Shown piece by piece: positions 497-63,545 of a DNA stretch of 63,545 bases. The notes below the pieces were generated by a model. The model was not told the DNA's origin. It made no database searches and worked only from the letters and a program-made list of their open reading frames with translations. Each line of letters begins with the position of its first letter. The stretch's first letter is position 1. Origin of the DNA: a virus (lineage: Duplodnaviria > Heunggongvirae > Uroviricota > Caudoviricetes). The translations under genes were made by a program, and so were the position numbers. The stretch lies in the IMG/VR virus record IMGVR_UViG_3300022555_000017, positions 64,001 to 127,545 of that record. The stretch is one strand, 5' to 3'.

Positions 497-517
497 TTTA
501 ACCCACCTTTACATTTT

Positions 518-904: not shown

Positions 905-908
905 TTTA

Positions 909-1580
909 TTATCCTATAAGAGTAATATGCGTATCGTCATCGCTTATCCTGCAATAAATTAAATTATTTCCATCAAGGGATTGTAAATATGTAGTGCAAC
1001 CACCAGATAAAACATCTGTTTCTGTTGTCCAGCTACCATCAATACTAACATATGACGTATATACTGGATAATTGTTATTCAAATTATGCTGAAGTGTGCA
1101 TTTATATATACCATCTTCGTCCAATGTAAGTTTCAATGTTTCAGTTGATATAGTTGAGCCCACTAAAGCCTTATATACACCGGCCTTAGATTCCCACCTA
1201 TATGCCAACTCATTACTAATCATTTTATTTTTTGCTAAATCAGTACCAGAGTTATCTGTTTCATCCACTTCAGCTGATGGAACTATAATATCAACATAAT
1301 CAACCGTTCCTTCATCTATAACACCAGCTTTAGACCATTTTATCTTAAACTTTCCACTTGCATATCCATTTGTTTCAGATGAATCAGCTATCCAAAATTC
1401 AAAATAACCATTCTCATCTGTTGAAATTTGCGGTAATGTATTTGTTGCCGAACCGCCATTTTCTGATGTATATACATATGCGGCAGTTGAAGAATTTGCA
1501 ACATATACTGATATATCAACTCCATTTATAGGTTGCCCTTCTTCATTACTGATATATTCCCAATGATGCGCACGAGCCAT
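909..1580 (-). CDS. Probable virion structural protein (fibre or baseplate associated)
   Basis: Beta-rich N-terminus (ISTDENGYFEFW) and one HNL-type repeat (TLQHNLNNNYP) like those in the upstream gene; GGAGA RBS. Confidence 0.55.
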   Translation of the reverse strand: MARAHHWEYISNEEGQPINGVDISVYVANSSTAAYVYTSENGGSATNTLPQISTDENGYFEFWIADSSETNGYASGKFKIKWSKAGVIDEGTVDYVDIIVPSAEVDETDNSGTDLAKNKMISNELAYRWESKAGVYKALVGSTISTETLKLTLDEDGIYKCTLQHNLNNNYPVYTSYVSIDGSWTTETDVLSGGCTTYLQSLDGNNLIYCRISDDDTHITLIG

Positions 1581-1594
1581 AATGTAATCTCCTT

Positions 1595-7272: not shown

Positions 7273-7293
7273 AGTTATCTTATTTCCTCTATA

Positions 7294-10218
7294 TTATTCT
7301 TCTTCTATAAATGTGCAATAATCAATTAAAATATTTGGAAACTGACTTTTATCTAAAGCTATATCTCTAAGCTTGTTGTTTCCGGTATAAGTAGATTCAT
7401 TAACAGTATATTTGGGAAACTCGGTTACGGTATCCTTTAGAGCTGCTACAAAATTAAATCCTATAGTAAGATTATTAACACCAGTAAAACCAGCTATACC
7501 TACCGGACTTTGATATGATATAATACTATTATTACCTAACTGGCCATTTGTATTATTACCCCATGCCCACAAAGAAGTATCAGAACCCCGAATACCCATT
7601 GTTGTATAAAAGTTATTCATTTTTATATCCTTAAAACTTATACCACCTTGAACAGAAACAGGGCTTGAATAATTCGTAGCATTACCAGTACCTAAGTTGC
7701 CTTGAGGATTATAGCCCCATGACCAAGCAGAGCCATCTAAACCATTTATAGCAAAACAACTTGCACCATCAGTTATAAACTTTGTATAACTACGATTTCC
7801 TATTACTGAAACAGGATTTGATTGACTGCCTATAGTCCCATTACCTAACTGGCCATAATTATTAGCACCCCAAGTCCATAAATTCCCTGTTTCATTTTCA
7901 ATACCGCCAATAGAATTCAACTGACTAAATTGTATTCCTCCAGCTACAGAAATAGGGCTTGAATAGTTATCAGTAGTATTATTTCCTAACTGGCCAAATG
8001 TATTATCGCCCCATGCCCAAGCAGTTAAAGTGAGAAGATTCAAACCATATACATAGTTATTATCTACAACTATCTGCTTATAACTTATGCCGCCAAGAAC
8101 TGAAACTGGCCTTGATTTATCTATTGTTGTGCCATCACCTAATTGCCCATAAGTATTCAATCCCCATGACCATGCTTGATTACTCTTAGACAAACCAATA
8201 ACAAAATTATTACCATTAATATATAATTTTTTATATTTATTACCGCCAAGAACTGAGGTAGGACTTGACCTATCATTATAATCACCAACACCTAATTGTC
8301 CATTTGTATTATATCCCCACGCCCAAGCAGTATCATCAGACATACGAATGCCTATGGCAGTTTTACCATCACAAAAAATATCACTAAAAATAATATTCCC
8401 TATGACAGAAACAGGGCTTACTTTGTTAGTAATAGTCCCATCACCTAGCTGCCCTTTATCATTTTGGCCCCATGACCATAATGTACCATCTTCTTTTAAT
8501 CCATAAATGGAATTACTGTTTGATACAATCTTTGTAAAGCTCAAATTATTATGTATAACAACTGGCGAATGAACTTCTGCCCAATTAGAATCATTATTAC
8601 CTAACTGCCCATATGTATTATCACCCCAAGTCCAAGCCATATTATTTGAATCAGGCTCAGATATTGTAACACTATCTATATCTATATCTCTAACTAAAAG
8701 ATATTGTATTCCCTTTACATTAGAAAATGTTTCAGTTAAAGATATATTATTTGTATTCAATATATACTCAATTATATCAGTAATCTTTATCGTTTCTTGA
8801 AAACTACGATTATACTTTGAAAAATAATAATTCAACTTACTTTTAACATCAGCCTCAACTAAACTGAAAGAATATGATGGCTTTACCTTTATGCCTATTT
8901 TGATTATAAAATTTAATATATCAGGTAAAACATAAGTATCATATGTTGAAATTATTTTTCTTGTTGCTAAATATTCTGTTAGTTTTCTCTTGTAATCTTC
9001 TGAATATATAATAGGTATAACTTCATGACCTGATTCATCTTGTGAAATACTTATAGTTCCTGTACCCCATTCATCAGGTATAACAGTAATAAAAATTTTG
9101 TTATAATCTCCAGTATTACCTAATGGCGATTCTTCCATCTCACCCCAAACACTTGCAGCAACAACATCAGTTCTTTGCTCAAGATGCTTAATATAATCAA
9201 TAGAAGTAACATTTCTAAACTGTGAATGAAATGTGCCACTTGAATTATCTTTCATATCCTTTATAAGTTCAGGGTCAACACCACCAGTTGCGGCGGTATG
9301 GGTAATAGTTACATAATCAGAATCAATAGTATTGCCATTAGTAAGATATGCTAATGTTGTTATATTATAAATAAACTCCGTATTTACAGGATTTATTATA
9401 GTATTTTCTTCAACATTTCCTTTCTTACCATATGATTCTAATACCTTTACAATAATTTTATCTGTGGGTTTAGGAACACCACTTGATACTAAAAATTCAA
9501 TAGAATATGTTTGATACTTGTCAAACTTAAACATATAAATATTACTTTCATTTAATAGACCTGTAACTTCATTATAAAAATTATTCACTCTAACCCAAAT
9601 ATCATTTCCAACTTGAACTTCAATAGATGGCAGATCATCATTCAAATCATTATCATAATCAAAGTTTAATGAAGGTAAATATAACTTATTATCTGATAGG
9701 TCTAATCCTGTATAGCTATATGTTTTAACTTCACCTTGCTTTACTGGAACTTGAAATGCGAATGGAAAAGAATCTTCTGTAATTGAAACAGTTGTAGTAG
9801 TTGTAGTGGTAAACTTTACTAGGTTCCCATCTTCGTTTTTCTCTGTAGATTCAATTTCTGTCCAAGCAGGAATAGTAAGTGTATCATATACAACTGCACC
9901 CGCTGATGGCCCAACACTTATTGTTAATGTTGTATTAGAAGATACATAACCTTTTGGCTCATATCCTTTAAGACTTGATAACATATGTGTTGTTTCATAT
10001 ATATCAGACGTATCAATATAATGATTTTTTACAACCTTATTAATATAAAAAGATGATATAGAACCAGCATATGAAACTAGTTCATCCAAAATAGCTAAAT
10101 TATTACCATCTTTCAAATAATCCTTAAACACCATATCATTACTAAGAACATTTAAAAAATCACTTTTAATTATATCAAAAGTCTTATCAAAATATTCAGG
10201 TACTAAATCATTTGACAT
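7294..10218 (-). CDS. gp6: Baseplate wedge subunit gp6-like (paralog B) with ~8 inserted RCC1 repeats
   Basis: Colinear homolog of 4516..7272 (YETTHMLS, RNVTSIDY, FPKYTV...NKLRDI); eight WxWGxNxxG(Q/N)LG motifs from ~8645 to ~7430. Confidence 0.88.
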   Translation of the reverse strand: MSNDLVPEYFDKTFDIIKSDFLNVLSNDMVFKDYLKDGNNLAILDELVSYAGSISSFYINKVVKNHYIDTSDIYETTHMLSSLKGYEPKGYVSSNTTLTISVGPSAGAVVYDTLTIPAWTEIESTEKNEDGNLVKFTTTTTTTVSITEDSFPFAFQVPVKQGEVKTYSYTGLDLSDNKLYLPSLNFDYDNDLNDDLPSIEVQVGNDIWVRVNNFYNEVTGLLNESNIYMFKFDKYQTYSIEFLVSSGVPKPTDKIIVKVLESYGKKGNVEENTIINPVNTEFIYNITTLAYLTNGNTIDSDYVTITHTAATGGVDPELIKDMKDNSSGTFHSQFRNVTSIDYIKHLEQRTDVVAASVWGEMEESPLGNTGDYNKIFITVIPDEWGTGTISISQDESGHEVIPIIYSEDYKRKLTEYLATRKIISTYDTYVLPDILNFIIKIGIKVKPSYSFSLVEADVKSKLNYYFSKYNRSFQETIKITDIIEYILNTNNISLTETFSNVKGIQYLLVRDIDIDSVTISEPDSNNMAWTWGDNTYGQLGNNDSNWAEVHSPVVIHNNLSFTKIVSNSNSIYGLKEDGTLWSWGQNDKGQLGDGTITNKVSPVSVIGNIIFSDIFCDGKTAIGIRMSDDTAWAWGYNTNGQLGVGDYNDRSSPTSVLGGNKYKKLYINGNNFVIGLSKSNQAWSWGLNTYGQLGDGTTIDKSRPVSVLGGISYKQIVVDNNYVYGLNLLTLTAWAWGDNTFGQLGNNTTDNYSSPISVAGGIQFSQLNSIGGIENETGNLWTWGANNYGQLGNGTIGSQSNPVSVIGNRSYTKFITDGASCFAINGLDGSAWSWGYNPQGNLGTGNATNYSSPVSVQGGISFKDIKMNNFYTTMGIRGSDTSLWAWGNNTNGQLGNNSIISYQSPVGIAGFTGVNNLTIGFNFVAALKDTVTEFPKYTVNESTYTGNNKLRDIALDKSQFPNILIDYCTFIEEE

Positions 10219-10221
10219 ATA

Positions 10222-10617
10222 TTATCCTCTTTTAAGAATTGTGGTAACAGAATATATATTACTGGAACTTATAGAACCTACGATAGAAAAATTAACGGTT
10301 ACTTCATATTGGTTATTATCATAATTTGATTGAACATTCAAATTTTCTATTTTAATTCTTTTTTCCCATGTTTGAATTGATGATAAAAATTCAGAACCAA
10401 TTCTTCTAGCTGTTATATCGTCCATTGGCTCAAATAATAACTTATAAAAATTACTACCAAACTCAGGTAACATTCTTCTGCTACCCATCATTGTTGTCAT
10501 TATATTTTTTAATGAGTTTCTAATGGAATCTATATCAGTATTTAACTCAACATCACCATCGTTTTGTCTGAATAGATCGCCATTAAAATCTGAATACATA
10601 TAATCTTTAGTTGCCAT
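10222..10617 (-). CDS. gp25: Baseplate wedge subunit gp25
   Basis: SIRNSLKNIMTT-x2-G-x-R-x3-PEFGS-x5-LFEP and WEKRI motifs of the GPW/gp25 family. Confidence 0.93.
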   Translation of the reverse strand: MATKDYMYSDFNGDLFRQNDGDVELNTDIDSIRNSLKNIMTTMMGSRRMLPEFGSNFYKLLFEPMDDITARRIGSEFLSSIQTWEKRIKIENLNVQSNYDNNQYEVTVNFSIVGSISSSNIYSVTTILKRG

Positions 10618-10634
10618 TTTTATTTCCTCTTATG

Positions 10635-10642
10635 TATTTATA
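10635..10642 (-). promoter_or_regulatory. T4-type late promoter box TATAAATA upstream of gp25
   Basis: Exact TATAAATA in the intergenic gap, 18 nt before the ATG. Confidence 0.65.
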
Positions 10643-10663
10643 CAATAAACTATTTAATCAATT

Positions 10664-11323
10664 TTAAGGTATTACATCTTCAATAATTTCATGTAATGAT
10701 GGAACTTCTGGTATTGTTGGTAAAGTAACATTTGGTAAAGTCACATCTCCAATACCACCACCTAAAGATGATATTTTTGCTTGTATTTGCGGCACAATTG
10801 TAGGTATTTTTGTAGCTAATATAACTTGATTTTCTATAATTGCTATATATGGTTGAGTAAATTGATTGATTACTTTCTTTATCCATGTTAATAATGAAGT
10901 TGGATTGATTGAAGGTACAATCATTAATGGCGCTAAAAATGATAACTCAGCTTGCATATTACTCACAAGATTGTTAAGTTCTTGATCAATTTTTAATGAA
11001 TAACTTTGTAGTTCTCTCAAATCATTTATCATTTCTATTTTTGAAGTAATACCATCGAGATATGATGAAACATCCATAGTTGGTAATTTTGGTATGGATG
11101 CTGTATAATCAAATTTTGGAAACTCAAGGTTTGATAATGTATCCAATTTAAATTTTACATTCGGCAACTCTGGCATAGCAGGCAATTTAGGCAAAACTGT
11201 TGCTCTTTTATTCAAATCTATTTTACTAAATGCTGCTTTTTTTGCTGTTTCTATAGCAGAAAAATCAACTTTTGGTACAGATATTTCTGGTGGTACTAAA
11301 TTAGGTAAAAGTGTGAATGGCAT
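10664..11323 (-). CDS. Hypothetical Pro-rich protein between gp5 and gp25
   Basis: 219-aa ORF with GGAGG RBS and LP/IP-rich termini; no PAAR motif seen. Confidence 0.7.
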   Translation of the reverse strand: MPFTLLPNLVPPEISVPKVDFSAIETAKKAAFSKIDLNKRATVLPKLPAMPELPNVKFKLDTLSNLEFPKFDYTASIPKLPTMDVSSYLDGITSKIEMINDLRELQSYSLKIDQELNNLVSNMQAELSFLAPLMIVPSINPTSLLTWIKKVINQFTQPYIAIIENQVILATKIPTIVPQIQAKISSLGGGIGDVTLPNVTLPTIPEVPSLHEIIEDVIP

Positions 11324-11335
11324 ATAAACCTCCTA

Positions 11336-12163
11336 TTAAATTATTGATACAACTATACCATCTTTTACAGTAACATTTTTATTCCCAGCATCAAAACTAC
11401 CATTAGCACCATTTCCAACTGAAACACTTTTAGTAGTCGTTACATCACCAACACATATTATATTCTGCGAAGTTAAAGTAATATTACCAATAGCTTTTAT
11501 TGATACATCACCACCTGTTGTAATATCCCAATCACCACCAATTTGAGCTGTTTTATTACCAGCAATACCGTCTGTACTATTTGCAATACAACTAAGTAAA
11601 ACATCACCATCTTTATCTATTTCTATATAAGTTCCTGAACAATGAAATAATGTTATTTTTTCATTACCGGGAGTTGAATCAAATTCTATATAATGCCCAC
11701 TATGAACAGATAAAATAACACTATGAGGATATACACCATATCCAGCATTCCAATCTGGTTGACCTACTTTATCAGGATATACACCATCTGGATCACTAAA
11801 TCCTTTACTTGTGTCTGGTGATTCAGTTGGTATGGCTGGAGCGGATGCAAAATATCTAGGTTGCATTATATTACCAGCCTCAAAGAACACAAATACATGA
11901 GAACCCTGTAATGGTACACCAAACCAACCATACTTAGAAATAGAACCCTCAATCAAACTTAATGCTGGTTGAGCCCAAGGCAATTCAGCTGTTGGTATAC
12001 CTTCAGTTGCTGATTTAGTTTTCATTTCAGTATGTATACCAAAAATACGAACTTTACATCGTCCTGCTTTTAAGGGATCAACATTATCTTCAACTACACC
12101 ACGATATATTGAATTTAATTTATCCTGTGGTAACTTAACATCTTTAAATGTATTTTTATCCAT
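11336..12163 (-). CDS. gp5: Baseplate central spike gp5-like (OB fold plus beta-helix, no lysozyme domain)
   Basis: YRGVVEDNVDPLKAGRCKVRIFGIH...LPWAQP...PLQGSHVFVFFEAG...P, then SGHYIEFDSTPGNEKI. Confidence 0.9.
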   Translation of the reverse strand: MDKNTFKDVKLPQDKLNSIYRGVVEDNVDPLKAGRCKVRIFGIHTEMKTKSATEGIPTAELPWAQPALSLIEGSISKYGWFGVPLQGSHVFVFFEAGNIMQPRYFASAPAIPTESPDTSKGFSDPDGVYPDKVGQPDWNAGYGVYPHSVILSVHSGHYIEFDSTPGNEKITLFHCSGTYIEIDKDGDVLLSCIANSTDGIAGNKTAQIGGDWDITTGGDVSIKAIGNITLTSQNIICVGDVTTTKSVSVGNGANGSFDAGNKNVTVKDGIVVSII

Positions 12164-13452
12164 TATCTTTTTCCTAATATAGAATCAACTTTAATATTTG
12201 TATTTGTAGATTTTGACAATGTTTTATCATTGCTTTCCGTATAAGCATTTTTCAATAGAACTATTTTTTGCTTAAATACAGGGTCTTGTTTTCCACTAAA
12301 ATGATTTGTAACTGATTTTATTAAAAATTTACCATCTAATGTGCTATTAAGAACTTGATCCCTCATTTCAGTACTTGGCCATTTTATATTCGTAAGTAAG
12401 CCAGGGTATCTTCTTTCATGTCCTTTAACTGTTATTGTTGCTGATAATTGTTTAGAGTATCTTTTTATAAAATCACATTCATGAATATTTCTAATTACAT
12501 CAGCATCATCTTCACCTGACATAACAAAATTATCATTTGGTGAACTTATTGTATCAGGAAATAAAGTATTTTTACCTAGCATAGTAAATTTAGAAATAAC
12601 ATCTGTATAAGTAAATGATTCATCTATTAATTTTTTCTTTAAAAAATCATAACCTAAAACTCTTGATCCTTTTAATTGCTTTATTGCTGAATTATCTATA
12701 CTATCCATCTTCCAATCTAAAATTGTATTATATGTTTTTGTTTTATCGCCATCTTTATTAAAAAATTCATAATAAATTATTTTATTATTTTCATCCTTTT
12801 CAACATCGGTACTTTGAAATAATTTATTTATTGTAACTAAATTCAGTCCTCTTGTATTAAAATAATATAAATATCCAGCCGTTTTGGATTCTGAGCCTGA
12901 TCCTCTTTCAACTAACCAACGTATTGCTTCAGATGGCGTCCAATAGGGCATAAAAAAATATGATAATTTTTCTCTCGTATTCTCAAATATTTTAAAAGTT
13001 TCAATACTTAACATATTTTTAGTTATATCTTTAATAATATCCGATATTCTTTTATCTGTCCATGATATATTATATCTTTTATCCATTAGATTAGAATAAT
13101 TAGTATCGACAAGAAATAAATCTATTTGACTCATTGAATTAGACTTTATTTTATCCATAGGATTCATGCTATCGACATTAAAAATATTAAATATAATAGT
13201 TACTACTTCTAACTCACCATATTGAATAACAATATTTTCATGCCCTGTAAATGGTAAAAATTCTGCTAACCCTCCTTTATCATAAAAAGATATTTTACCA
13301 ACTAAACAAAATGAAAATATATCTTCTATAAAGTATATTTCAGATATATCTTCAAGATTTATATGGAAAACTCTTCCGTTTGAAAGAAGCTTAACATTAA
13401 ATACTCCTTTATCTTCTTTTATATTTGCATTTACATCATCAGTATTACTCAT
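12163..13452 (-). CDS. Baseplate hub protein, gp27/VgrG-like
   Basis: IYFIEDIFS...G-x-I-x3-D, then G-x-E, MPYWTP and YLYYFN motifs; lies between gp53 and gp5. Confidence 0.65.
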   Translation of the reverse strand: MSNTDDVNANIKEDKGVFNVKLLSNGRVFHINLEDISEIYFIEDIFSFCLVGKISFYDKGGLAEFLPFTGHENIVIQYGELEVVTIIFNIFNVDSMNPMDKIKSNSMSQIDLFLVDTNYSNLMDKRYNISWTDKRISDIIKDITKNMLSIETFKIFENTREKLSYFFMPYWTPSEAIRWLVERGSGSESKTAGYLYYFNTRGLNLVTINKLFQSTDVEKDENNKIIYYEFFNKDGDKTKTYNTILDWKMDSIDNSAIKQLKGSRVLGYDFLKKKLIDESFTYTDVISKFTMLGKNTLFPDTISSPNDNFVMSGEDDADVIRNIHECDFIKRYSKQLSATITVKGHERRYPGLLTNIKWPSTEMRDQVLNSTLDGKFLIKSVTNHFSGKQDPVFKQKIVLLKNAYTESNDKTLSKSTNTNIKVDSILGKR

Positions 13453-13829
13453 TATAAATCCGCCATATCCCTCATTTCTCTCATTAAATAAGATATATAA
13501 TAATTTCTCAATATTTTTATATTTTGACCATCTTCTAATTCTTCAAATGGATTAATAACATTATTGATCAAGCATACTACCCACCACAAATTTATATTAT
13601 CGTGTACTTTATCAGCTATATTTTCCCAAAAATCTTTATTATCAATTTCATAGGTGTCATAAAAAACAATATCATTTTTTACAGAATCATTAATAGAATA
13701 TGATCTAAAAATATTTAAAAATTTTGTACCATCATCATCTAAAATATTAAACATTCTTAAAAACGATGAATTTAATAATGTATGATCTGTTAAATCAAAA
13801 AAATTATCAGTTGCTTTATTTGTTGACAT
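13452..13829 (-). CDS. gp53: Baseplate wedge subunit gp53-like
   Basis: YEI-x4-FWENIADKVH-x4-LWWVVCLINNVINPF, a LysM-like gp53 signature. Confidence 0.85.
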   Translation of the reverse strand: MSTNKATDNFFDLTDHTLLNSSFLRMFNILDDDGTKFLNIFRSYSINDSVKNDIVFYDTYEIDNKDFWENIADKVHDNINLWWVVCLINNVINPFEELEDGQNIKILRNYYISYLMREMRDMADL

Positions 13830-13932
13830 TTTATTCTCCTGTTAAATAATTACATTAATGCTTGCCCAGAATCTGCGATATTAAAGAAATTATTATATAC
13901 TTTATCCTTAAAACTTTCAGTTGCTACACCAT

Positions 13933-14718
13933 TTATTTTTTACTTGTAGTTAATAAAGTACCATTAAATGATGTATTAAAAACGGGTAAAAGTCCTTGAA
14001 ATGATAATGTAAGTTCGCAAGATGTAGGTAAATTAAATATAAAAGGCGCTTTATATGTATATTGAACACCTGTTAAAACAGCGTAATCTAAATTTATAAG
14101 ATCGCCACCATTAGATGATTTTATAAAAAAAACATGAGGTGGTAAAATAACTTCCATATCCCCTTTCCTTTGTGGGGATGAGAATGATTGTAGAGCACGG
14201 ACTGTATTAATTATATTTTGTTTTGGCGAGCCGCAGTCATATAAAGTAAATGTAAATTCCATTGCTCTTCTACCTGTATTTTTATACACCATAGAAACAT
14301 CAGGTCTTGAATAATTTACAGGTGTTTTATTTAAAGCACCTACTGCATTACTTGACATTTCTCCCGTTTCCCCGCCACCAAAAGCACCTTTTGTACCTTC
14401 TACTAATGCATTTTTTAAACCACTCAATTCTTTTCCGGCTTTTCCAAGTGTCTGACCCAATTCAGCACCTCTCGATGCAATACTATCATAATCAGCATAT
14501 TCATGTGTTAAAGTTTCTGTTATATCATTTGGCGCTAAAAATTTAAATGTATGAAATTTTGATTCTAATTCAATAGTCATTCTAGCACCTGTTGGCTGAC
14601 TTTTTAAAGGATATACATCTATTTCAATCCAAACCAAAGAATCAAAATTTGCAATATTTAACCATCCCTGTACTGGATTCTGTGTAATAGAACCTACTAA
14701 TTCTATTTTATTATCCAT
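13933..14718 (-). CDS. gp48: Baseplate tail-tube cap, gp48-like
   Basis: VYKNTGRRAMEFTFTL...PPHVFFI...AVLTGVQYTY...CELTLSF is the gp48-type pattern. Confidence 0.7.
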   Translation of the reverse strand: MDNKIELVGSITQNPVQGWLNIANFDSLVWIEIDVYPLKSQPTGARMTIELESKFHTFKFLAPNDITETLTHEYADYDSIASRGAELGQTLGKAGKELSGLKNALVEGTKGAFGGGETGEMSSNAVGALNKTPVNYSRPDVSMVYKNTGRRAMEFTFTLYDCGSPKQNIINTVRALQSFSSPQRKGDMEVILPPHVFFIKSSNGGDLINLDYAVLTGVQYTYKAPFIFNLPTSCELTLSFQGLLPVFNTSFNGTLLTTSKK

Positions 14719-14728
14719 CGTATTCTCC

Positions 14729-16816
14729 TTAGCTATTAATCAATGCAAAAGGCATTGGCATTGAAATAGGTATATCATGCTGTGGTTGAGAACTTTCATC
14801 TATAGTTGTAGATGCTTGTAAAACTGCATTACTTGTATTTATATTATTATTTGTATTTTCCGAAACCATTTTTCCAAACTCATCTACACTCTTTTTATCC
14901 TTTTCATTTTCAACTTTAGCCTTTTCATCTTCAGCTTTAATAATATTATTTGATGACTCCTTTATCGGAGAATTTAGCATTTCATTTTTTGTTACTGCTA
15001 AACCACCGACACTAATATCAGCCGTTTGTAAAGTCTGTGATAATTTATTTGATATATTGTTTGCTGATGGTAATATTGATTGAGTACTAGCAGGTGTAGA
15101 TGTAGATGCTGACTTTCCTATTGATGATGTACTAGCAGATGCAGATGTAGATGCTGACTTTCCTATTGATGATGTACTAGCAGGTGTAGATGTAGATGCT
15201 GACTTTCCTATTGATGATGTACTAGCAGGTGTAGATGTAGATGCCGTAAATCCCCTAGATGCTCCGCCACCACCAGACATCCCACTACCTACTACTGGTG
15301 CAGTTACTGTACCGGATACTTTAGCTTTTTGTTCATCCTTAACTTTTTGCTCATCTTGCTGTTTTTTTGTTGGTAAGCCAAACCATCCCCTAGCCCAATC
15401 AGGAATAAATCCAATCATTTTTTCAAAAAGCCAATTAAAACCATCACCTATCATATTACTAAGACCTGTAAATGGCTTCATCCAATTTATATTAGTAGCC
15501 CAGTTAGTTAAATCCATCCAGCTTTCAGAAACCATTTGTCCAAACATCATCATAGCTGTAGCGACATCTTTAGTACTCACCATTCCAAATGTAATACCAC
15601 TAATAGCACCAGCAATAGCACTACCAATTTTTGATAATATACCATCACCACCAAAAATATTATTTACTTCTTTATCATTCCATCCACTAAAAGCCTTATA
15701 AAGTATAAAACCTAAATATAGAAATGCTAAAACAGTAGGATTTTTCATAAGACTAAAAATAAGTTTTATTCCAGAACCTAACATACTAAAAATAGGGCCT
15801 ATTAAACCACCTATAAATGAAAATAGTCCAGAACTCATACCTTTTAATTTACTCAAAAGACCTTTCTTTTCGCCACCTTCTCTTTCATCTGCTAATTTAT
15901 TTACTTTTACATATGCTAAAAATGCCGTAGCAATACTCTTTATCTTTCCCGCTAAATTATCTTTTGTTTTTTCTATATCAATTGTTGGTTCTATAGTTTT
16001 TGCACTCCACCAACCTTGCTGTCCAGAAATATTAGGAAGTAAACTTTTTGTTGCTCCGCCACTTAAATGATCATATAAATCCTTAAATATTTCAGTTTCA
16101 ATATTAACTGCTTTTGTTGTTGCAGATTCTTCTATTTTAGGTTCTTTTAATTTGTCTCTTTTAAACATACTACCAAAAGTTCTAAATCCATTCCATAATG
16201 ATTTGAATGAACTTTTAGCTAAAGTATAAATTTTCATTATTTCAGGGCCCATTAAATTTTCAAATTCTGATTGTATTATAGTTTTAGCATCATTAAAAGC
16301 ATCTTTAAAAGATTCTACAGCTTCACCTTCTTTATCTGCAAATTTTTTCCACATATTAGACCATACACTATTTTGTTTAATTGTAATATCTTTTATACTA
16401 GAAGATAGTCCCCTTTTAGTTTTATCTGTAATATATTTTTTCCATCCGCCACTTGCAGAATCGGCAATAGTTTTATTATAGCCAGTTAAATAATTTCCAA
16501 TAACTTTTGCTGTTTTTAATGTATGTTCATTTATACTTTTAGAAATTGTATCTTTCCTAAATAATGAAAATATTTTAGAACCAAAACTTCTAAAAGTACC
16601 AATATATGATTTTTCTATATAATCATTTGTTTGCTTTCCAACATCTTCACCAATTTTATCATCAGTCTTTTTAACAGCATCGGCTAATGATTGATTAAAA
16701 TGTTTAGCAAGAGAATCAACACCTCTTTCAATACTATTTAATACTTTAGTCTGATCACCTAAATGCTTATTAATTCTTTTACTTATATCAGCTACATTAG
16801 AAAATTCATCTGCCAT
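14729..16816 (-). CDS. Tape-measure or hub-like protein (paralog 2) with Ser/Thr-rich repeat
   Basis: Long helical amphipathic Gly/Phe/Leu region; shares an E-x2-LMGP segment with 16829..19315; located in the tail module. Confidence 0.6.
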   Translation of the reverse strand: MADEFSNVADISKRINKHLGDQTKVLNSIERGVDSLAKHFNQSLADAVKKTDDKIGEDVGKQTNDYIEKSYIGTFRSFGSKIFSLFRKDTISKSINEHTLKTAKVIGNYLTGYNKTIADSASGGWKKYITDKTKRGLSSSIKDITIKQNSVWSNMWKKFADKEGEAVESFKDAFNDAKTIIQSEFENLMGPEIMKIYTLAKSSFKSLWNGFRTFGSMFKRDKLKEPKIEESATTKAVNIETEIFKDLYDHLSGGATKSLLPNISGQQGWWSAKTIEPTIDIEKTKDNLAGKIKSIATAFLAYVKVNKLADEREGGEKKGLLSKLKGMSSGLFSFIGGLIGPIFSMLGSGIKLIFSLMKNPTVLAFLYLGFILYKAFSGWNDKEVNNIFGGDGILSKIGSAIAGAISGITFGMVSTKDVATAMMMFGQMVSESWMDLTNWATNINWMKPFTGLSNMIGDGFNWLFEKMIGFIPDWARGWFGLPTKKQQDEQKVKDEQKAKVSGTVTAPVVGSGMSGGGGASRGFTASTSTPASTSSIGKSASTSTPASTSSIGKSASTSASASTSSIGKSASTSTPASTQSILPSANNISNKLSQTLQTADISVGGLAVTKNEMLNSPIKESSNNIIKAEDEKAKVENEKDKKSVDEFGKMVSENTNNNINTSNAVLQASTTIDESSQPQHDIPISMPMPFALINS
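15084..15244. repeat. 45-nt tandem repeat, ~3.6 copies, encoding ASTSTPASTSSIGKS
   Basis: Unit gtactagcaggtgtagatgtagatgctgactttcctattgatgat starts at 15084, 15129, 15174 and 15219; the second copy has two substitutions. Confidence 0.95.
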
Positions 16817-45600: not shown

Positions 45601-47928
45601 TTATAAGTATTTTTCTAACAATATACCTAATCGTTTCTGTAGTATATCATATATTTTACTATCGTTTTTATTTTCTTCTGGTTTATTTGTCTTTTCGGGC
45701 TTCTTTTTAACTATCTTTTCAGTTCCATCTGGTTTTAAGATAATATCATTGTCATCATCATCACCATTTTTTATAATCATATCTGGTTCTTTATATGATT
45801 TATCTATATCCAAATCTTTTCTTTTACTATTATAACTTGCCGCACCACCTTGAGTTCTCACACCGCTCGGACGCCATATATATTTCCAATGTTTTATTTT
45901 ATTTGTTCCTGTTTTATAATCATCTGTAGAAGTATGATATGCACCATCTTCAAAATGTTGATGATTATGCTCAATAACATCTAACCCATTAGATGTTATT
46001 AATAAATTTGAAAATCCAATCATACACATTAAACAAGCTGGGCCCTTCGTCATTGCAAGTTTAGCATTATCGCTACCTAAAATTTTTATAAGTTCGTCTT
46101 TATCTATATATTTCATCATATCTTCAACTGCTTTTACATCTAAACTATCTATTAATTTTCTTGATTTGGATAAATTACCATTTTTACTTGCAATTATTTC
46201 TTGCGTATCTTGTTTATGTTTTTTTATAAATTCACGAAATGCCTTTATATCTTTAATTGAACTCCCAAAACCACTATTTTTCATAAGTTCTTCATATTTA
46301 GAATCATCATCTATAAAATCATCACCAATACCTAATAAATGACCCGTTTTGCCAGGACTACTAGATAGCATTTTTCTTTTCTTTTCATCTGGATGGTATC
46401 TTTGATATTGAGCAGTTTCGCCAGGAAATCCATAATAGCCAAATTTACCACCAGCTAGACCATATTTTACACTTATTGCTGTAATTCTTTCTACTTTATT
46501 TGAGCCTTTACCTTCAGAAGATATTTTTAATTTATCACCACTAGGAAATGAACCATTTGCAGGTAAATAACATTCTTCCCCGTTAGCTATTTCAGTATCA
46601 TAAAGAGCCATTTCAGCAAACTGTTTCATTACACCATTAGCAATATTTTCATCAAGATTATATAAACTAACTGCAGCATTAGAATATAAATCACCTATTG
46701 CCTTACTAGCCATTTCTGATGGAATATCATAGTCTTTTAATACCTTTTGTAAATCATTTGTAAGATTTTCAAAAGTAGTCACAACTTTAGGGTCTATTTT
46801 TCCAGCGTCAGCTAATCTTCTAGCAGCTTCTGTAGATTTAGTTAAAGCTGTATTTGAATTTATAGAATGTTCTAAATAAGCTTTTGAATTTATACCTTTT
46901 TCATTATCTAAAAGTAATCCATCAGAATCTACAGGCGCATATACACTTTTATATTTTGTTTCAAATGTATCAAATGGTGGTTTATCAAAAAGTTTTGCAA
47001 CTTTTTCATCACTCTGAGAAGTTCTAATAGTATCTCTATCAAGTTCAGGTTTAGCCGTTGCACCTAATATACTAGCAGGATTTTTTTCTGTTTCTTGATA
47101 TGAAAGGTCAACATCGTAATGATTAAAAAGATTTACATAATATTTGGAATATTTTTTTATACCCTTTCTAGTATTATCATGATCATCTTTTGATAATCTA
47201 GCATTATTTACATACAGTTCACCATTTTTATTTGTTTCCAAACCATATTCTAAAACTATTTCCTCAGCTCTTTTAATAGATTCATCTCTAGGAAGATTTG
47301 TTAAATCATCAACATCTTTAAAAAATCTCATATATACATTTTTATTTCTATCTTCCATAACATCATTTGACAGTATTAAATCTGTTGCTTGTTTACTAAC
47401 TTGTGTAATATTAATTTCTCTACCATCTGCTGTTTTTATTACTGATCCAATAGTTTCTTCTGGTTTTTTCTCACCACCTGTTTCTTCTGGTTTTTTCTCA
47501 CCACCTGTTTCTTCTGGTTTTTTCTCACCACCTGTTTCTTCTGGTTTTTTCTCACCACCTGTTTCTTCTGGTTTTTTCTCACCAGTACCCTTAGGCAGTT
47601 CTTCAGTAGAACCACCAGTTTTTGATGCTTTATTTTCAGCATCTATAATTATTGCATCGGCATCTTTAGAAAGTTTTTTAGATATATTATTCCCTAATAT
47701 ATGATTAAACGCACCATGAAAACTTTTAATACTATCATATGATAAAGTAGAAAGTAATGATTTTATAGCACTTAAAATTGCTGATGCTGCCTTAGTCTGC
47801 ACCTCTATATTATCTGGATTAGTTTCAATTATCTGAATTAATTGATGTGCTAACTTTGCACCCTTTTTAACTGAAGGATCACTTAAATCCGCCTTTACTT
47901 CGTTTATTAAATAATCTTTTACTTTCAT
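45601..47928 (-). CDS. Large hypothetical protein, candidate internal head (ejected) protein
   Basis: 775 aa, starts MKVKDYLINE|V; internal GEKKPEETG repeats; lies between portal and core genes. Confidence 0.6.
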   Translation of the reverse strand: MKVKDYLINEVKADLSDPSVKKGAKLAHQLIQIIETNPDNIEVQTKAASAILSAIKSLLSTLSYDSIKSFHGAFNHILGNNISKKLSKDADAIIIDAENKASKTGGSTEELPKGTGEKKPEETGGEKKPEETGGEKKPEETGGEKKPEETGGEKKPEETIGSVIKTADGREINITQVSKQATDLILSNDVMEDRNKNVYMRFFKDVDDLTNLPRDESIKRAEEIVLEYGLETNKNGELYVNNARLSKDDHDNTRKGIKKYSKYYVNLFNHYDVDLSYQETEKNPASILGATAKPELDRDTIRTSQSDEKVAKLFDKPPFDTFETKYKSVYAPVDSDGLLLDNEKGINSKAYLEHSINSNTALTKSTEAARRLADAGKIDPKVVTTFENLTNDLQKVLKDYDIPSEMASKAIGDLYSNAAVSLYNLDENIANGVMKQFAEMALYDTEIANGEECYLPANGSFPSGDKLKISSEGKGSNKVERITAISVKYGLAGGKFGYYGFPGETAQYQRYHPDEKKRKMLSSSPGKTGHLLGIGDDFIDDDSKYEELMKNSGFGSSIKDIKAFREFIKKHKQDTQEIIASKNGNLSKSRKLIDSLDVKAVEDMMKYIDKDELIKILGSDNAKLAMTKGPACLMCMIGFSNLLITSNGLDVIEHNHQHFEDGAYHTSTDDYKTGTNKIKHWKYIWRPSGVRTQGGAASYNSKRKDLDIDKSYKEPDMIIKNGDDDDNDIILKPDGTEKIVKKKPEKTNKPEENKNDSKIYDILQKRLGILLEKYL
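47453..47584. repeat. 27-nt tandem repeat, four full copies plus 24 nt, encoding GEKKPEETG
   Basis: gtttcttctggttttttctcaccacct at 47453, 47480, 47507 and 47534, partial at 47561. Confidence 0.95.
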
Positions 47929-48426: not shown

Positions 48427-50115
48427 CTACACCGATGGGGGTGGAGGGCCTAAATTAGAATAATCAACTTCTTCTCCTTCACTACCTTCTTGCCCTCCAC
48501 CTTCTTGGCCGCCCATTCCTTCTTCACCACCCATACCGCCGAACTCGTCAACTTCGGGAGCCAAGCCATATTCCTTATCAAGTTCAAATCCCTTTTTGTT
48601 TTCTTCTATATCTTCATCTGTCCATTTCAAGTATTTCTTTATCAAATAATACTTAGAAAACTCTGCATTATTTGAAAGTGCATTATAGTTAGCAAAACTC
48701 TGCTCCAAGAAACCTTGCTCCATCTGCTCATTATAATGTGAAGGTGGCGTCATAGTAATAGTTATATCGTCTATATCTAAATCATATTGTTTCTTTATAC
48801 CTTTAAATTCAAGATGAAGTAAAAATAAATCCCTAAACTCTTTACAGAACATACCTTGCTGTCTTTCTAAAAATTTAGCCCATTTAATTTCATCCCTTGA
48901 AATCTCACCGGATTTTGAACCACCAAACAAAGTTTCACTAGTTGTATTGTTATTTTCATTTGCAACTCTTGAAAGAGGATACTTTAATGCTCTATAAAGT
49001 TTCTTTGCGAAATAATAAATATCATCTAGCTCAGTAAACCCAGCAGCATTACCACCACCAACTGTTTCAATAGATGAACCACGGCCATCGGCACTTACAG
49101 GCAGCCAAAAATTTTCTAAAATAGAAAGTACTTCAGGCTCTTGCGAAAGGCTACCTGTAGTTGGATCATAACTTTGTTTCTTTATATACTTTGATTTAAT
49201 CTTCTCAACAAATTTCAATGCTTTATCTCTAGGCATATTTCCTGTATCAATTTTAAATACAAATCTTTCAGGCGCTCTAACTATACGATAAATAATAACA
49301 GATGTTTCAAGAAGTTTTAACTGATTATATGGCACTCTTGATTTTTCTAAATATCCAAAAATTTCATATTTAGTTCTTCCATAAATGCCATAATTAAAAT
49401 AGCCAATCTGTTCTGGATTAAATACAACTATATCAGGTCTTTTTATAGCCTCATCCTTTGATGATGGCCTTTTAATATTAGTCGATAAATACTGATAAAA
49501 ATTCAAAACTTTTCCCGTTCTTATATCATATTCAAAATCCATAGTTTCAGATGGTAAAACTCTTATATTAACAAGACCCTTTTTTATATTACCTTCTTGA
49601 ATAATTCTTTCATAATAAATACGCCCATCAATTAAAAATCTTCTAAACATATCCCAAATCTTATCATTCATTTGTATTCTGTTATAAAATAACTCATGGA
49701 ACTCTTCATATAAAATTTTCTTTATATTTTTATTCTTTTCTAATTTATCATTTGTAATTTGTAACTGAACACTATCTCCATTATCATTAACCTGCGTTGA
49801 TTCATTTACAGCATCTTCTATAACATCGGCAATTTCAGGAGATTCAGCCATTTTTCTATATTCCATAATTCTTGAGACTTCATCTTCAAATGTTTTATTG
49901 ATAAACCTGTTATAGAATTTATTAAAACCATCAAGACCTGTTGTACCATAGCCATTTATAAGAGCATAAACATCATCAATACCTTCACCAGTTGTTTTCT
50001 GTAACTGCTTCAAAGTAGATGTATCATTACCCTTCTTTTCAAATGCTTTTATGGCTTCATCTAATCGGCCATTTAATTCTCTATCTTTGCCATTAAAAAA
50101 ATCATACCAAGCCAT
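48427..50115 (-). CDS. gp20: Portal protein gp20
   Basis: YRKMA-x2-PEI-x3-IED, IDGRIY, LETSVIIYRIVRAPERFVFKIDTGNMP, ENFWLP and LY-x-AL-x2-P-x-SR. Confidence 0.97.
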   Translation of the reverse strand: MAWYDFFNGKDRELNGRLDEAIKAFEKKGNDTSTLKQLQKTTGEGIDDVYALINGYGTTGLDGFNKFYNRFINKTFEDEVSRIMEYRKMAESPEIADVIEDAVNESTQVNDNGDSVQLQITNDKLEKNKNIKKILYEEFHELFYNRIQMNDKIWDMFRRFLIDGRIYYERIIQEGNIKKGLVNIRVLPSETMDFEYDIRTGKVLNFYQYLSTNIKRPSSKDEAIKRPDIVVFNPEQIGYFNYGIYGRTKYEIFGYLEKSRVPYNQLKLLETSVIIYRIVRAPERFVFKIDTGNMPRDKALKFVEKIKSKYIKKQSYDPTTGSLSQEPEVLSILENFWLPVSADGRGSSIETVGGGNAAGFTELDDIYYFAKKLYRALKYPLSRVANENNNTTSETLFGGSKSGEISRDEIKWAKFLERQQGMFCKEFRDLFLLHLEFKGIKKQYDLDIDDITITMTPPSHYNEQMEQGFLEQSFANYNALSNNAEFSKYYLIKKYLKWTDEDIEENKKGFELDKEYGLAPEVDEFGGMGGEEGMGGQEGGGQEGSEGEEVDYSNLGPPPPSV

Positions 50116-59468: not shown

Positions 59469-62400
59469 TTATAAATCTGGTAATATTTTTACAGGTGACA
59501 TATAATTTTTTGGTGTATATTGAAATGTCAAACAATAATTAGCATTATTACCCCATGCCCATATTGAACCATCTAAACCATTTAAACCGGAAGAATAGTC
59601 CCTACCTGCATATATCTTTGTAAAACTCATACCACCAAGAACTGACGTTGGACTTGAATATGATGTTGTATTTCCAGTTCCTAATTGACCTGAACTATTA
59701 TTACCCCATGCCCACGCAGTACCATCTGAACCTCTAATACCCAAAGAATGGCCACTACCAGCAGCTAATTGTGCCCAACTTATACCACCCTTAACAGATG
59801 TAGGTATTGAAGTATCATAATATGACCCACTAAAAAATCCTGAAGAATATGATGTTAATGTTCCAACATTACCTAATTGCCCATAACTATTGCTACCCCA
59901 TGACCATGCTATACCATTAGAACCACTAATACCTAAAGAATGATAGCCCCCAGCTACTATCTGTTTCCAACTTATACTACCAGTAATAGAAACAGGGCTT
60001 GATACTGAAAGCATTGAGCGATCCGAATCAATTCCCAACTGTCCTAATGTATTATAACCCCATGCCCAACCTGTTCCATCCGAACCTCTAATACCTAATG
60101 TATGATCAGTGCCAAGAACTGTTTCTTTCCAACTTATACCACCAACAACAGAAACAGGACTTGAATATGAAGTTCTTGTATTATTTCCCAAATTTCCCAA
60201 CGAATTATCACCCCATGCCCATGCTGTACCATCTGAACCACGAAGCCCTATACTAGTATCATCATTAGAAGAAACTTGTTTAAAACTTATTCCTCCAAGA
60301 ACAGAAACAGGACTTGAATATGATATTATATTTCCATGACCTAATTGGCCAATATTGTTTCCACCCCATGCCCATGCTGAACCGTCCGAGCCTCTAATAC
60401 CCAAAGAATGGTTAAAATATGGATATGTTCCCGCAACTCTAAGATCGGCACCAATAGCAATCTGCTTCCAACTTATATTTCCTAAAATTAATGTTGGATA
60501 ATATTTACTAGTTATTGTACCATCACCTAACTGTCCAACATTATTAGTTCCCCACATCCATGCTGAACCATCCAAGCCACGAATGCCGCCAATATAATTA
60601 CTAGCACCAAACATATCAGAAAAACTTATAATAGTTGTTACTAAAACCGGACTTGACTGATTTACATATAATGTCATATTATTTTTTTGTGTAGTTTGCT
60701 TATATGTATTATCTCCCCACAACCAAACTTTATTATCATAATATCCTATACCACCAATATTATTATACCCAACTTTCAAATCAGAGAAACTAACACTTCG
60801 TATTATTAAAGTAGGTGATAAACAATTTGTTAAATTACCAGTTCCTAACTGACCATTTGAATTAAGACCCCATGCATAACCAGTATTATTTAAACCATTT
60901 ATTCCTACCGAAGAATAAAAAAATGTATCAATTTGTTTGAAACTTATACCACCTACAACAGAAACAGGGCTTGAATATTGTGTTGTATTATTAGTTCCTA
61001 ACTGCCCATACCCATTATAACCCCATGCCCATGCTGATCCATCTAAACCACGGATACCTAAAGAATAAAAATTACCAGCAGATAATTGCGTAAAACTTAT
61101 ACCACCTACAACTGAAACAGGACTTGAATAACTTGTAGTATTATTAGTTCCTAATTGCCCATTATCATTACCACCCCATGTCCAAGCAGAGCCATCCAAT
61201 CCCTTAATTCCTAGAGAATGATTATAACCAGCCGATATTTGTATAAAACTAATATTACCATGAACTGAAACTGGGCTAGAATATGATGTTGCATTACCCA
61301 TACCTAATTGTCCAATACTATTAATACCCCATGCCCACGCAGTACCATCTAAACCATTAATGCCTAGAGAATGATACATACTAGTTGATAATTGCGACCA
61401 ACTTATATTACTAGCAACTAGAGTTGGACTTGAATATGCTGCACTATCACCTATTCCTAAATAACCTTGACTTCCATATCCCCAGCCAAATCCTATTCCA
61501 TCAGAACCACGAATACCTAAAGTATGAGAAGAATAAGTAGTAATAGAAGAAAAAATAATACCGCCCAAAACTAAAACTGGTGTTGTTTGATTAGTTATTG
61601 TACCATCACCCAACTGTCCGTAATCATTTTGGCCCCATGACCATAATTTACCAAAAGTATCTCTATAAAATACTGTACTATATCCAAGTTCTAAGAAATC
61701 CGTATAATCATTTACATATTCCTGTATATTAATAACTGATGCTTGAGAACCACCAAATAGTCTTGCTGTTGTACCATTTATATTTGTATTTGTACCTACC
61801 TGCTCTCCTATTCTAACTTTAAATGTAATAGTGTTTAATGATCTATTATTATAAACATACATTAAATGAGTCTGTTCCAAACCAGACGCTGAATACTTAT
61901 TTCCTTGCCCTGAACACAATGCATATAAATCGGAATCTTTATATAATGCAGCATTTGTGGAATTTGATGTACCTGAATTAGACACATTCAAATATACTTC
62001 TATCAATAATTTACTATTAGTACTTTTAGGTGTATATATTTTTGTTAAAACTTCAAGTCCCATAGTATTTGTAGGTATATCAACTGTAGTTAAAGCAACA
62101 CTTGTATTCGTATATACTATTGTATTACCACTTTGATGATTAACTAATAGACCAGATGTGCCAGAAGAGCCAGAAGTACCTGAGCTACCTGATGTTTTTG
62201 AACTACCTGATGTACCAGACGATCCAGAAGTACCTGAACTACCTGATGTTCCAGAAGAACCAGCAGAACCAGATGTGCCAGAAGAGCCAGAAGATCTTGA
62301 TAAACCAGACGATCCAGAAGTACCTGAACTACCTGATGTTCCAGAAGAACCTCCACTTGTGCCTGAAATCTTTGAAGAACCAGATGTTCCTGAACTACCC

Positions 62401-62502: not shown

Positions 62503-63545
62503 TTAAATAACTAATACAGGGCTTGAATAATTTATCATATCACCTATTCCTAAATAACCTTGACTTCCATCACCCCATGCCCATGCTGTGCCATCAGAAC
62601 CTCTAATACCATAAATATTATTATTATATCCAATATAAAGTTGTGTAAAACTTATGCCGCCTAAAACTGAAACAGGGCTTGATCTATCAATTGTGCTCCC
62701 ATCACCCAAAACGCCATAATCAGAATTATATCCCCATGCCCATGCTGTGCCATCAGAACCTCTAATACCATAAATATTATTATATCCAATATAAAGTTGT
62801 GCAAAACTTATGCCGCCTAAAACTGAAACAGGGCTTGATCTATCAATTGTGCTCCCATCACCCAAATTACCTGATTCATTATCACCCCATGCCCATGCTG
62901 TGCCATCAGAACCTCTAATACCATAAATATCATATCCAATATAAAGTTGTGCAAAACTTATGCCGCCTAAAACTGAAACAGGGCTTGATCTATCAATTGT
63001 GCTCCCATCACCCAAAACGCCATAATCAGAATTATATCCCCATGCCCATGCTGTGCCATCAGAACCTCTAATACCATAAATATTATCATATCCAATATAA
63101 AGTTGTGCAAAACTTATGCCGCCTAAAACTGAAACAGGGCTTGATCTATCAATTGTGCTCCCATCACCCAAATTACCTGCTTCATTATATCCCCATGCCC
63201 ATGCTGTGCCATCAGAACCTCTAATACCATAAATATTATTATATCCAATATAAAGTTGTGCAAAACTTATGCCGCCTAAAACTGAAACAGGGCTTGATCT
63301 ATCAATTGTGCTCCCATCACCCAAATTACCTGATTCATTATCACCCCATGCCCATGCTGTGCCATCAGAACCTCTAATACCATAAATATCATATCCAATA
63401 TAAAGTTGTGCAAAACTTATGCCGCCTAAAACTGAAACAGGGCTTGATCTATCAATTGTGCTCCCATCACCCAAAACGCCATAATCAGAATTATATCCCC
63501 ATGCCCATGCTGTGCCATCAGAACCTCTAATACCATAAATATTAT
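62503..63545 (-). CDS. RCC1-repeat protein, C-terminal part; the frame is open to the right edge, so the track start at 63474 is an internal Leu
   Basis: Hand translation from 63543 gives NIYGIRGSDGTAWAWGYNSDYGVLGDGSTIDRSSP..., in frame with the track ORF. Confidence 0.88.
   Translation of the reverse strand, partial: NIYGIRGSDGTAWAWGYNSDYGVLGDGSTIDRSSPVSVLGGISFAQLYIGYDIYGIRGSDGTAWAWGDNESGNLGDGSTIDRSSPVSVLGGISFAQLYIGYNNIYGIRGSDGTAWAWGYNEAGNLGDGSTIDRSSPVSVLGGISFAQLYIGYDNIYGIRGSDGTAWAWGYNSDYGVLGDGSTIDRSSPVSVLGGISFAQLYIGYDIYGIRGSDGTAWAWGDNESGNLGDGSTIDRSSPVSVLGGISFAQLYIGYNNIYGIRGSDGTAWAWGYNSDYGVLGDGSTIDRSSPVSVLGGISFTQLYIGYNNNIYGIRGSDGTAWAWGDGSQGYLGIGDMINYSSPVLVI
62571..63545. repeat. Near-identical tandem repeat of 150-156 nt units (RCC1 blades), about 6.5 copies visible and continuing off the window
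   Basis: Invariant blocks ccccatgcccatgctgtgccatcagaacctctaataccataaat and aaacttatgccgcctaaaactgaaacagggcttgatctatcaattgtgctcccatcaccc recur; differences are confined to two loop regions and one A/T codon. Confidence 0.96.

Follow-up and report, generated by a model that had tools for sequence, protein, structure and literature searches.

What keeps the blades of a viral repeat protein identical down to their silent sites, leaving two short loops to differ from blade to blade, and does this arrangement serve to vary a binding surface? The question is raised by an RCC1-repeat gene, here called the array gene, which runs off one end of the linear 127,545-nucleotide (nt) IMG/VR virus record IMGVR_UViG_3300022555_000017. 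We analyzed the final 63,545 nt of this record, hereafter the window. A first-pass annotation had proposed that recombination between identical frames reassorts two independently shuffled loops and that triplet slippage tunes the length of one of them, making the array a candidate diversity generator. Our analysis confirms the observation and partly supports the interpretation. We favor, as probable, a reading in which the array is a recently amplified, concertedly evolving propeller of the RCC1/BLIP-II type at the C-terminus of a probable virion fiber or adhesin protein. As we discuss below, several lines of evidence point to exchange between blades, and variation in blade number and order between assemblies cannot be separated from assembly collapse.

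We cut the repeat units at the GIRGSDG anchor, in place of the earlier pairing of each loop B with the loop A that precedes it. In this phase the array contained five units of exactly 153 nt and one of 159 nt, which replaces the earlier range of 150–156 nt, followed by a terminal partial unit (Table 1). The listing of the loop A and loop B sequences was correct when we re-read the 346-residue open frame. Tandem Repeats Finder reported a period of 153 nt (6.3 copies, 91% matches) and also one of 459 nt (2.1 copies, 97% matches). The six full units were then aligned, over 159 columns, with the first unit of the gene from L014, a contig that holds its 5′ end. Variable columns numbered 24 of the 159, all of them within 39–59 (loop B, 21 nt), at 124 (GCA or ACA, the alanine/threonine codon) or within 145–159 (loop A, 15 nt), and the invariant runs between these segments were 38, 64, and 20 nt long. 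The frames are thus identical in DNA apart from the loops and one A/T codon, exactly as first described. Mean pairwise identity of the blades in protein was 0.91, the highest among 174 relatives (median 0.68).

The distribution of silent differences is informative about how this pattern arose. Between two loop B alleles, roughly one base in two differed and a 3-nt indel was present, and more than 120 nt of frame carried no change, silent sites included. Because loop B has diverged while the frame is unchanged even at silent sites, neutral divergence after duplication cannot give the pattern, and concerted evolution by recombination or conversion would account for frames that are identical even at these sites. 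The Gly codon ahead of loop B was GGA or GGT, a silent difference that co-varied with the loop allele. The YNEAGNL allele, which had looked like a hybrid, proved to consist in DNA of the first 9 nt of the YNSDYGVL allele and the last 15 nt of the DNESGNL allele with a single T>G change.

The window array reads X-Y-Z-X-Y-W-T (unit types in Table 1), and the lengths of successive loops compensate: loop A has 2 residues after a loop B of 8, and 3 residues after a loop B of 7. The terminal 362 nt of the contig (63184..63545, minus strand) are an exact copy of window positions 62725–63086 at an offset of 459 nt; this may be a real three-blade super-repeat or the product of an assembler passing around a loop in its graph. 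Loop B was coupled to the following loop A in four of the six units. The recurrence of loop B alleles with different loop A partners was seen again, but it reduces to one discordance (W replacing Z), explicable by a single event, atop a duplicated three-blade block, and the proposal that the two loops shuffle independently is not supported. By exact permutation of the six units, pairing of loop B with the loop A after it had P = 0.07, and pairing with the loop A before it had P = 0.33; with so few units, such tests cannot tell coupling from independent pairing. Super-periods of 306 and 459 nt also occurred in related genes (L014:2084–2950 and four genes of contig L025), and block duplication is therefore a normal mode of growth in this family. 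As seen in the window, what is inherited together is a block of one to three whole blades and not a single loop.

Repetition of the X-Y-Z blade tops, with only three internal loop B alleles, also fits a static, multivalent, lectin-like propeller, in which each blade top would carry the same sugar site for a repetitive surface glycan, the array would be fixed, and the alleles would be variants of that site. Propeller lectins often have near-identical blades, and glycosyltransferase and fiber genes are neighbors of the array gene. Selection at the protein level, however, cannot explain identity at silent sites, which requires recent copying or conversion, and in the diverged ortholog P0001 the ten blade tops all differ. 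We regard a static lectin as improbable.

The predicted fold supports an RCC1 propeller, as first proposed, and places both loops. The 346-residue fragment matched the Pfam RCC1 repeat (PF00415) in 7 stretches (144 bits, curated cut-off 21.7) and the RCC1-like domain (PF25390; 167 bits, curated cut-off 150). An AlphaFold2 model of the fragment, built with 65 relatives, had a predicted local distance difference test score (pLDDT) of 95, a predicted template-modeling score (pTM) of 0.87, and 27 strands arranged in seven blades of four strands each. UVR8, HERC1, HERC2, and RCC1 headed the Foldseek and phmmer results, UVR8 being the best match both in fold (E = 1.5e-30, template-modeling score 0.65) and in sequence (E = 4e-40). 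Each blade runs from strand 1 (RSSPVS) through strand 2 (SFAQLYI), loop A, strand 3 (DIYGIR), and strand 4 (TAWAWG) to loop B, which leads to strand 1 of the next blade. Because the blade is an antiparallel meander, the turn between strands 2 and 3 and the connection from strand 4 to the next strand 1 exit the same end of the sheet, which would put loops A and B on one face. When aligned with UVR8, loop A fell on the Trp-Arg of the GWRHT motifs and loop B on the residues past WGWG, which correspond to the Asp96 region on the assumption that the deposited chain begins at an offset of 12 residues in the protein. Published work on UVR8 places Trp285, Arg286, Asp96, and Asp107 in its dimer interface, on one face, and both loops align with interface residues. 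The two loops thus map, by strand topology and by the UVR8 alignment, to the same predicted propeller face and not to opposite ones. By this strand order, a loop B and its following loop A are part of one structural blade, which fits their length compensation, and the terminal partial unit would close the ring using strands from the N-terminal part of the protein. A binding role for this face is likely.

The ortholog P0001 (570 residues) has ten different blades and the same N-terminal domain as the array gene. It is encoded by gene 623–2335 of L018 (European Nucleotide Archive, ENA, ERZ4223250 NODE_50090), from a more distant phage, and a ten-repeat RCC1 protein is unusual. Its AlphaFold2 model contained ten four-stranded sheets (pLDDT 86), and a fold search with this ten-blade model returned only seven-bladed RCC1 domains, with poor root-mean-square deviations.

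Multiple observations support exchange between blades. First, the first blade of the gene exists in different forms in otherwise near-identical genomes. The segment that codes IRGSDGTAWAWG in L014, L019, and L020 matches the internal frame exactly; its counterpart codes INDLDGSTWAWG in L021, L022, and L023, which were read as DNA, and in the L026 product P0242, which was read as protein. The two haplotypes had 11 differences in a tract of 41 nt (L020:6206–6246 versus L021:4206–4246; gene positions 206–246) as compared with 6 in 7,800 nt of flanking sequence (Fisher P = 2e-22). The first blade of P0001 reads GINESDG, nearer to the INDLDGSTWAWG form. As the IRGSDGTAWAWG form is that of the internal frame and the ortholog resembles the other, the IRGSDGTAWAWG form is best explained by gene conversion in which an internal unit overwrote the first blade. 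The tract adjoins unique sequence and recurs in three independent assemblies, and is therefore not an assembly effect. Second, a 33-nt block that spans loop B of the terminal unit (62538..62570, minus strand; GSQGYLGIGD) is identical to positions 61445–61477 in a blade of the neighboring 1004-residue gene, whose blades are otherwise ~65–70% alike; this suggests exchange between paralogs. Third, loop A of the last full unit, which is marked by ACA, was YNNN in three assemblies, YNN in two, and YIGYIYDN in two. Because ACA lies only 20 nt from loop A, this length polymorphism should withstand repeat collapse. In addition, a RecA/UvsX-like protein is encoded in the record. Recombination between frames, as an evolutionary process, and triplet change in loop A are therefore both borne out.

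Confinement of variation to short segments might also reflect templated hypervariation, either by a diversity-generating retroelement or from silent donor cassettes such as those of pilin or VlsE systems, and the confinement here is sharp. Other results argue against this. No reverse transcriptase (PF00078) was found in the 127.5-kb record, in agreement with the first-pass annotation, and control genomes behaved as expected; at 57% completeness of the record, this absence is not final. Loop differences included indels and changes at all four bases and were not confined to adenines. Apart from the 33-nt terminal block, no loop B allele had a copy (16 nt or more) elsewhere in the record or in L014 that could act as a donor. 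Templated hypervariation is, in our estimation, very improbable.

How far can the order and number of blades be trusted? A single metagenome contig, L014, was found with an exact 26-mer of the frame, and short full versions of the gene were found in MEGAHIT assemblies by a protein search with three units as the query; of these, ERZ1426555 and ERZ1426562, with the YIGYIYDN variant of loop A, were read as protein only. The missing 5′ end of the gene, retrieved at L014:13549–13944, comprises the ATG, a 70-residue N-terminal domain, and the first blade, whose loops are GNESGNL (B) and YD (A); L014 then breaks within the array, 46 nt into an invariant stretch. L020 joins the two pieces: in comparisons of 6.4 kb each, it was 99.97% identical to the window and 99.94% identical to L014. 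L019, L021, L022, and L023 were 99.6–100% identical to L020 in the flanks compared. In all, the same phage was assembled from at least nine other samples, with compared flanks at least 99.6% identical and arrays of 2, 3, or at least 7 units (Table 1). The short complete versions encode products of 157 (three sequences), 162, 209, 210, and 218 residues.

Several features mark these short forms as collapsed arrays. The three units of L020 equal U5, U6, and U7 of the window except for a single G/A difference, a signature of repeat collapse, and not of recombination, in which the first unit would have been spliced onto the last ones. The two-unit forms differed in the A/T codon and in loop A (ACA with YNN, GCA with YNN, GCA with YDN, and ACA with YIGYIYDN). 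Because these combinations are all drawn from alleles of the long array, and because one two-unit haplotype runs on into a YNSDYGVL unit, the short forms are collapsed arrays. We also considered that the 157- and 210-residue forms might be real short genes whose products fold into oligomeric propellers (compare PMC6805158), and rejected this possibility because near-identical genomes carry different combinations of frame and loop A. When loop A is YNN, 142 nt separate a loop B from the one that comes next, and consequently no 141-mer graph can link three successive loops.

Most of the two-loop junctions, and the unit types themselves, are probably real. By contrast, the window's unit order and unit number were reconstructed from short reads and are unreliable: assemblies disagree (2, 3, or at least 7 units), and the two contigs that reach the array from unique sequence both stop within it. 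The first-pass annotation had itself raised an assembly artifact in unit order as a result that would undo its proposal, and this applies insofar as the order proved untrustworthy. The gene has at least nine WxWG repeats if the YD junction of L014 is right and at least eight if the YNN junction of L020 is right; the real gene possibly has about ten, like P0001.

These results bear directly on whether the array is a true diversity generator, in which frequent recombination between frames and triplet slippage reassort blades and loops so that sibling phages differ in binding face and host range. Identical frames of 44–85 nt offer good recombination substrates to a T4-like phage with a RecA/UvsX-like gene, the conversion tract and the loop A length variants separate near-identical genomes, the loops lie on one predicted face, and the WD40 repeats of fungal NOD-like receptors (NLRs) provide a precedent (PMC1805685, PMC2873952). 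In addition, junctions absent from the window occur elsewhere: YD followed by YNSDYGVL, GNESGNL followed by YNN or YDN, and YNN or YDN followed by DGSQGYL. However, these novel junctions all come from contigs collapsed to two or three units, among them L020 with its near-exact copy of U5–U7. The loops in the window do not appear independent, as the array reads as a three-unit super-repeat, the repertoire is small (five loop B alleles in about ten assemblies), and the array has no known link to host range. Among the assemblies compared, no order variant at the population level was separable from assembly collapse, and the proposal of a population-level generator is to that extent not sustained. 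We consider a true diversity generator unlikely. It is likewise doubtful that the array is truly unstable, in the sense that recombination and loop A slippage produce co-existing variants in blade number, order, and loop sets and that the disagreement between assemblies is partly their footprint.

Table 1. Array gene, its repeat units, the adjoining gene, and versions of the array in different assemblies. Coordinates are window positions; X, Y, Z, W, and T are the unit types used in the text.
Feature	Coordinates	Strand	Remarks
RCC1-repeat gene, 3′ part (346 codons and stop)	62503..63545	-	No start codon; runs off contig end; open frame 62503..63543
U1, 153 nt (X)	63382..63534	-	Loop B YNSDYGVL then loop A YD; GIRGSDG phasing; same as U4
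U2, 153 nt (Y)	63229..63381	-	Loop B DNESGNL then loop A YNN; GIRGSDG phasing; same as U5
U3, 153 nt (Z)	63076..63228	-	Loop B YNEAGNL (hybrid allele) then loop A YDN; GIRGSDG phasing
U4, 153 nt (X)	62923..63075	-	Same as U1 by exact DNA comparison
U5, 153 nt (Y)	62770..62922	-	Same as U2 by exact DNA comparison
U6, 159 nt (W)	62611..62769	-	Loop B YNSDYGVL, ACA (Thr) replacing GCA, loop A YNNN; last full unit, uniquely marked
U7, terminal partial unit (T)	62503..62610	-	Loop B DGSQGYL, last strand YSSPVLVI, stop codon; GIRGSDG phasing and predicted structure
Next gene, 1004 residues	59469..62483	-	Collagen-like (G-X-Y) stalk and ~14 diverged RCC1 repeats; PHROG tail-fiber matches; 19 nt downstream of array gene
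Array in window			At least 7 WxWG units; contig ends inside array
Array in L014			First unit complete, second cut; contig ends inside array
Array in L019, L020			3 WxWG units; complete open frame
Array in L021, L022, L023, L026, ERZ1426555			2 WxWG units; complete open frame
Array in ERZ1426562			At least 3 WxWG units, then unrelated residues

Taken with the conversion tract and the silent-site identity of the frames, a concertedly evolving fiber or adhesin propeller would work as follows. The blades would have been amplified recently and kept alike by unequal homologous recombination and by short gene-conversion tracts between blades, the array having been re-amplified from three or four blade types. 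The differences that survive would be those in loop B, which connects strand 4 to strand 1 of the next blade, and in loop A, the turn between strands 2 and 3, and these loops would crown the presumed ligand-binding face. Loop B alleles would be old, diverged cassettes with silent differences of their own, and loop A would be a short TAT-(G/A)AT-(AAT)n tract that gains and loses triplets.

Several points weigh against this reading. First, our data show the fold, the loop positions, the pattern of identity, one conversion tract, length polymorphism of loop A, and the disagreement between assemblies, but we infer the virion location, the binding function, and selection on the loops, and five loop B alleles, indels included, together with a frame that has no silent change are too little to calibrate selection. 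Second, placement of the loops on a common face rests on strand topology and the UVR8 alignment, not on measured distances. Third, the 70-residue N-terminal domain matched no annotated family and no Pfam NTPase. Fourth, the array and its copy number are read from assemblies. Finally, some of the junction differences between assemblies could be real recombinants, in which case the population would be more diverse than we suppose.

Phage RCC1 propellers that combine a fixed frame with two variable loops form a family, of which the array gene is the extreme member. Entropy across 1,008 blades, drawn from 244 relatives, was highest at the loop A and loop B positions, and several relatives had blades that were 82–87% identical in protein. 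Paralogous RCC1 arrays of the same phage had blades only 71–76% alike in DNA, which makes the array at the window's end, as judged from these comparisons, exceptional within its own genome. L024 (JGI 3300037851 Ga0394877_0873567) encodes at 286–956 blades that are 87% alike in DNA and differ at the same two loops; this 956-nt contig ends inside its array and is probably an assembly casualty too. On L025 (JGI 3300050719 Ga0502758_000003), a 113-kb phage-like contig, six tandem RCC1 genes of 438–472 residues occupy 8001–16785 beside DUF4815 and DUF4376 (tail-fiber-like) genes, with blades 69–83% alike in DNA and two- or three-blade super-periods.

The record that carries the array gene, whose completeness CheckV estimates at 57%, comes from an uncultured T4-like phage. 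In the window all large open frames lie on the minus strand, and G+C content is ~30%. A T4-type portal gene at 48427–50115 matched Pfam Portal_T4 (E = 1e-99), its closest cultured relatives being Methylophilales phage Melnitz and Pelagibacter phage HTVC008M at just 31–33% identity. A megablast search of GenBank phages with the array region gave zero matches, an exact 38-mer of the frame was absent from IMG/VR, its own records possibly aside, and an exact look-up in a protein collection found neither the window fragment nor the L014 fragment. IMG/VR relatives identified by protein (L009–L013) were only 39–43% identical, too distant for questions about populations.

The array gene is flanked by genes for collagen-like proteins with PHROG tail-fiber matches, glycosyltransferases, and more RCC1 proteins, and its downstream neighbor in particular gives it a virion-fiber context. 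At least six further contigs of this phage (L018, the contig of P0001, left out) preserve the gene order around it. L020 (ENA ERZ27245625 k141_686268, 197,316 nt; locus coordinates 1–12633) bridges the end of the record, which can therefore be extended. Beyond the window's end (L020; L014:7549–13944) lie two glycosyltransferase-9-like genes, a methyltransferase gene, a collagen-like fiber gene of 291–298 residues, and three further RCC1 genes. RCC1 repeats also occupy the C-terminal halves of two paralogous gp6-like baseplate wedge proteins (phrog_219; window 4516–7272 and 7294–10218). The RecA/UvsX-like recombinase gene is in the first half of the record (G000:C1:57994–58701; PF00154, 57 bits, 377-residue open frame). 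Tandem repeats of other kinds occur in the window as well: a perfect 27-nt repeat at 47453–47584 (4.9 copies, 100% matches) within a 775-residue gene (45601–47928), and a 45-nt repeat at 15074–15244 (3.8 copies, 95% matches) within a 695-residue gene (14729–16816).

Metagenome assemblies systematically break or collapse such genes, as the short products listed above and two broken contigs, all from one phage, illustrate. Because arrays break and collapse in this way, database proteins of the family may be artifacts, and blade order from short reads is not to be interpreted. The array locus is now bracketed by unique sequence on both flanks. If the array varies in populations, it would give a phage a simple, retroelement-free way to change its receptor-binding surface, and it would be a natural propeller scaffold in which each blade offers two loops for exchange. 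If it is truly unstable, it would diversify the binding face of an adhesin without a reverse transcriptase and so be a viral counterpart of the fungal NLR repeats.

How does the array compare with known systems? RCC1/BLIP-II proteins form the third largest group, 10%, of highly repetitive propellers, with a few viral members, and blade number in such propellers varies among close relatives (Pereira and Lupas, 2022, PMC9218822). The array belongs to this kind, having near-identical blades that arose by amplification within one chain, and our analysis confirms both the fold and the repeat family. It differs in its place in a phage fiber module, in frames that are 100% identical in DNA, and in two loops with diverged cassettes; loop-confined variation and phage adhesins are not discussed in that study. 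The RCC1-like domains of UVR8, RCC1, and HERC proteins (PDB 4dnw, 1a12, and 4o2w) have the same four-stranded blade, and jumbo coliphage phAPEC6 encodes eleven RCC1-like proteins (PMC7247149). Unlike the array gene, which has more than seven repeats, all of these have diverged blades, and none is known as a phage receptor-binding protein. Our search of the literature on RCC1 and phage tail fibers found no paper on RCC1 receptor-binding proteins; one apparent hit was spurious, its match being to strain numbers of the RCC culture collection.

Among phage adhesins, a close parallel is gp38 of T2/T6-type phages, in which hypervariable segments lie between conserved glycine-rich motifs (PMC3157838; Tetart et al., 1996, 1998, cited therein). 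Recombination at these motifs swaps specificity, and a duplicated small adhesin domain is reported to widen the host range of T4 (PMC3157838). Like gp38, of which it is an analogue, the array gene would encode a T4-type phage adhesin (putative here) with conserved motifs that flank variable loops. By contrast, the folds are unrelated, gp38 is not built from tandem identical units, and its exchanges occur between phages and not between the repeats of one gene. Profile searches with the array gene gave no match to a gp38 family.

The nearest analogue in function is the WD40 domain of the het-d, het-e, and HNWD genes in Podospora anserina, whose repeats evolve in concert within and between paralogs and have hypervariable residues on one face; reshuffling has been proposed as a source of new specificities, and short-read assemblies of these genes fail, so that long reads are needed (PMC1805685, PMC2873952, PMC12222747). 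In both systems propeller repeats are kept alike, variation is limited to the binding face (presumed for the phage protein), and short-read assemblies are unreliable. Unlike the fungal genes, the array consists of RCC1 repeats, lacks a NACHT or NB-ARC domain, and is non-eukaryotic, and whole loops with indels vary in place of four codons. Positive selection and polymorphism in repeat number have been demonstrated for the fungal NLR WD40 genes and not for the phage array. From these likenesses and differences, the phage array is best viewed as an analogue of the fungal NLR repeat sensors and not as a member of their class.

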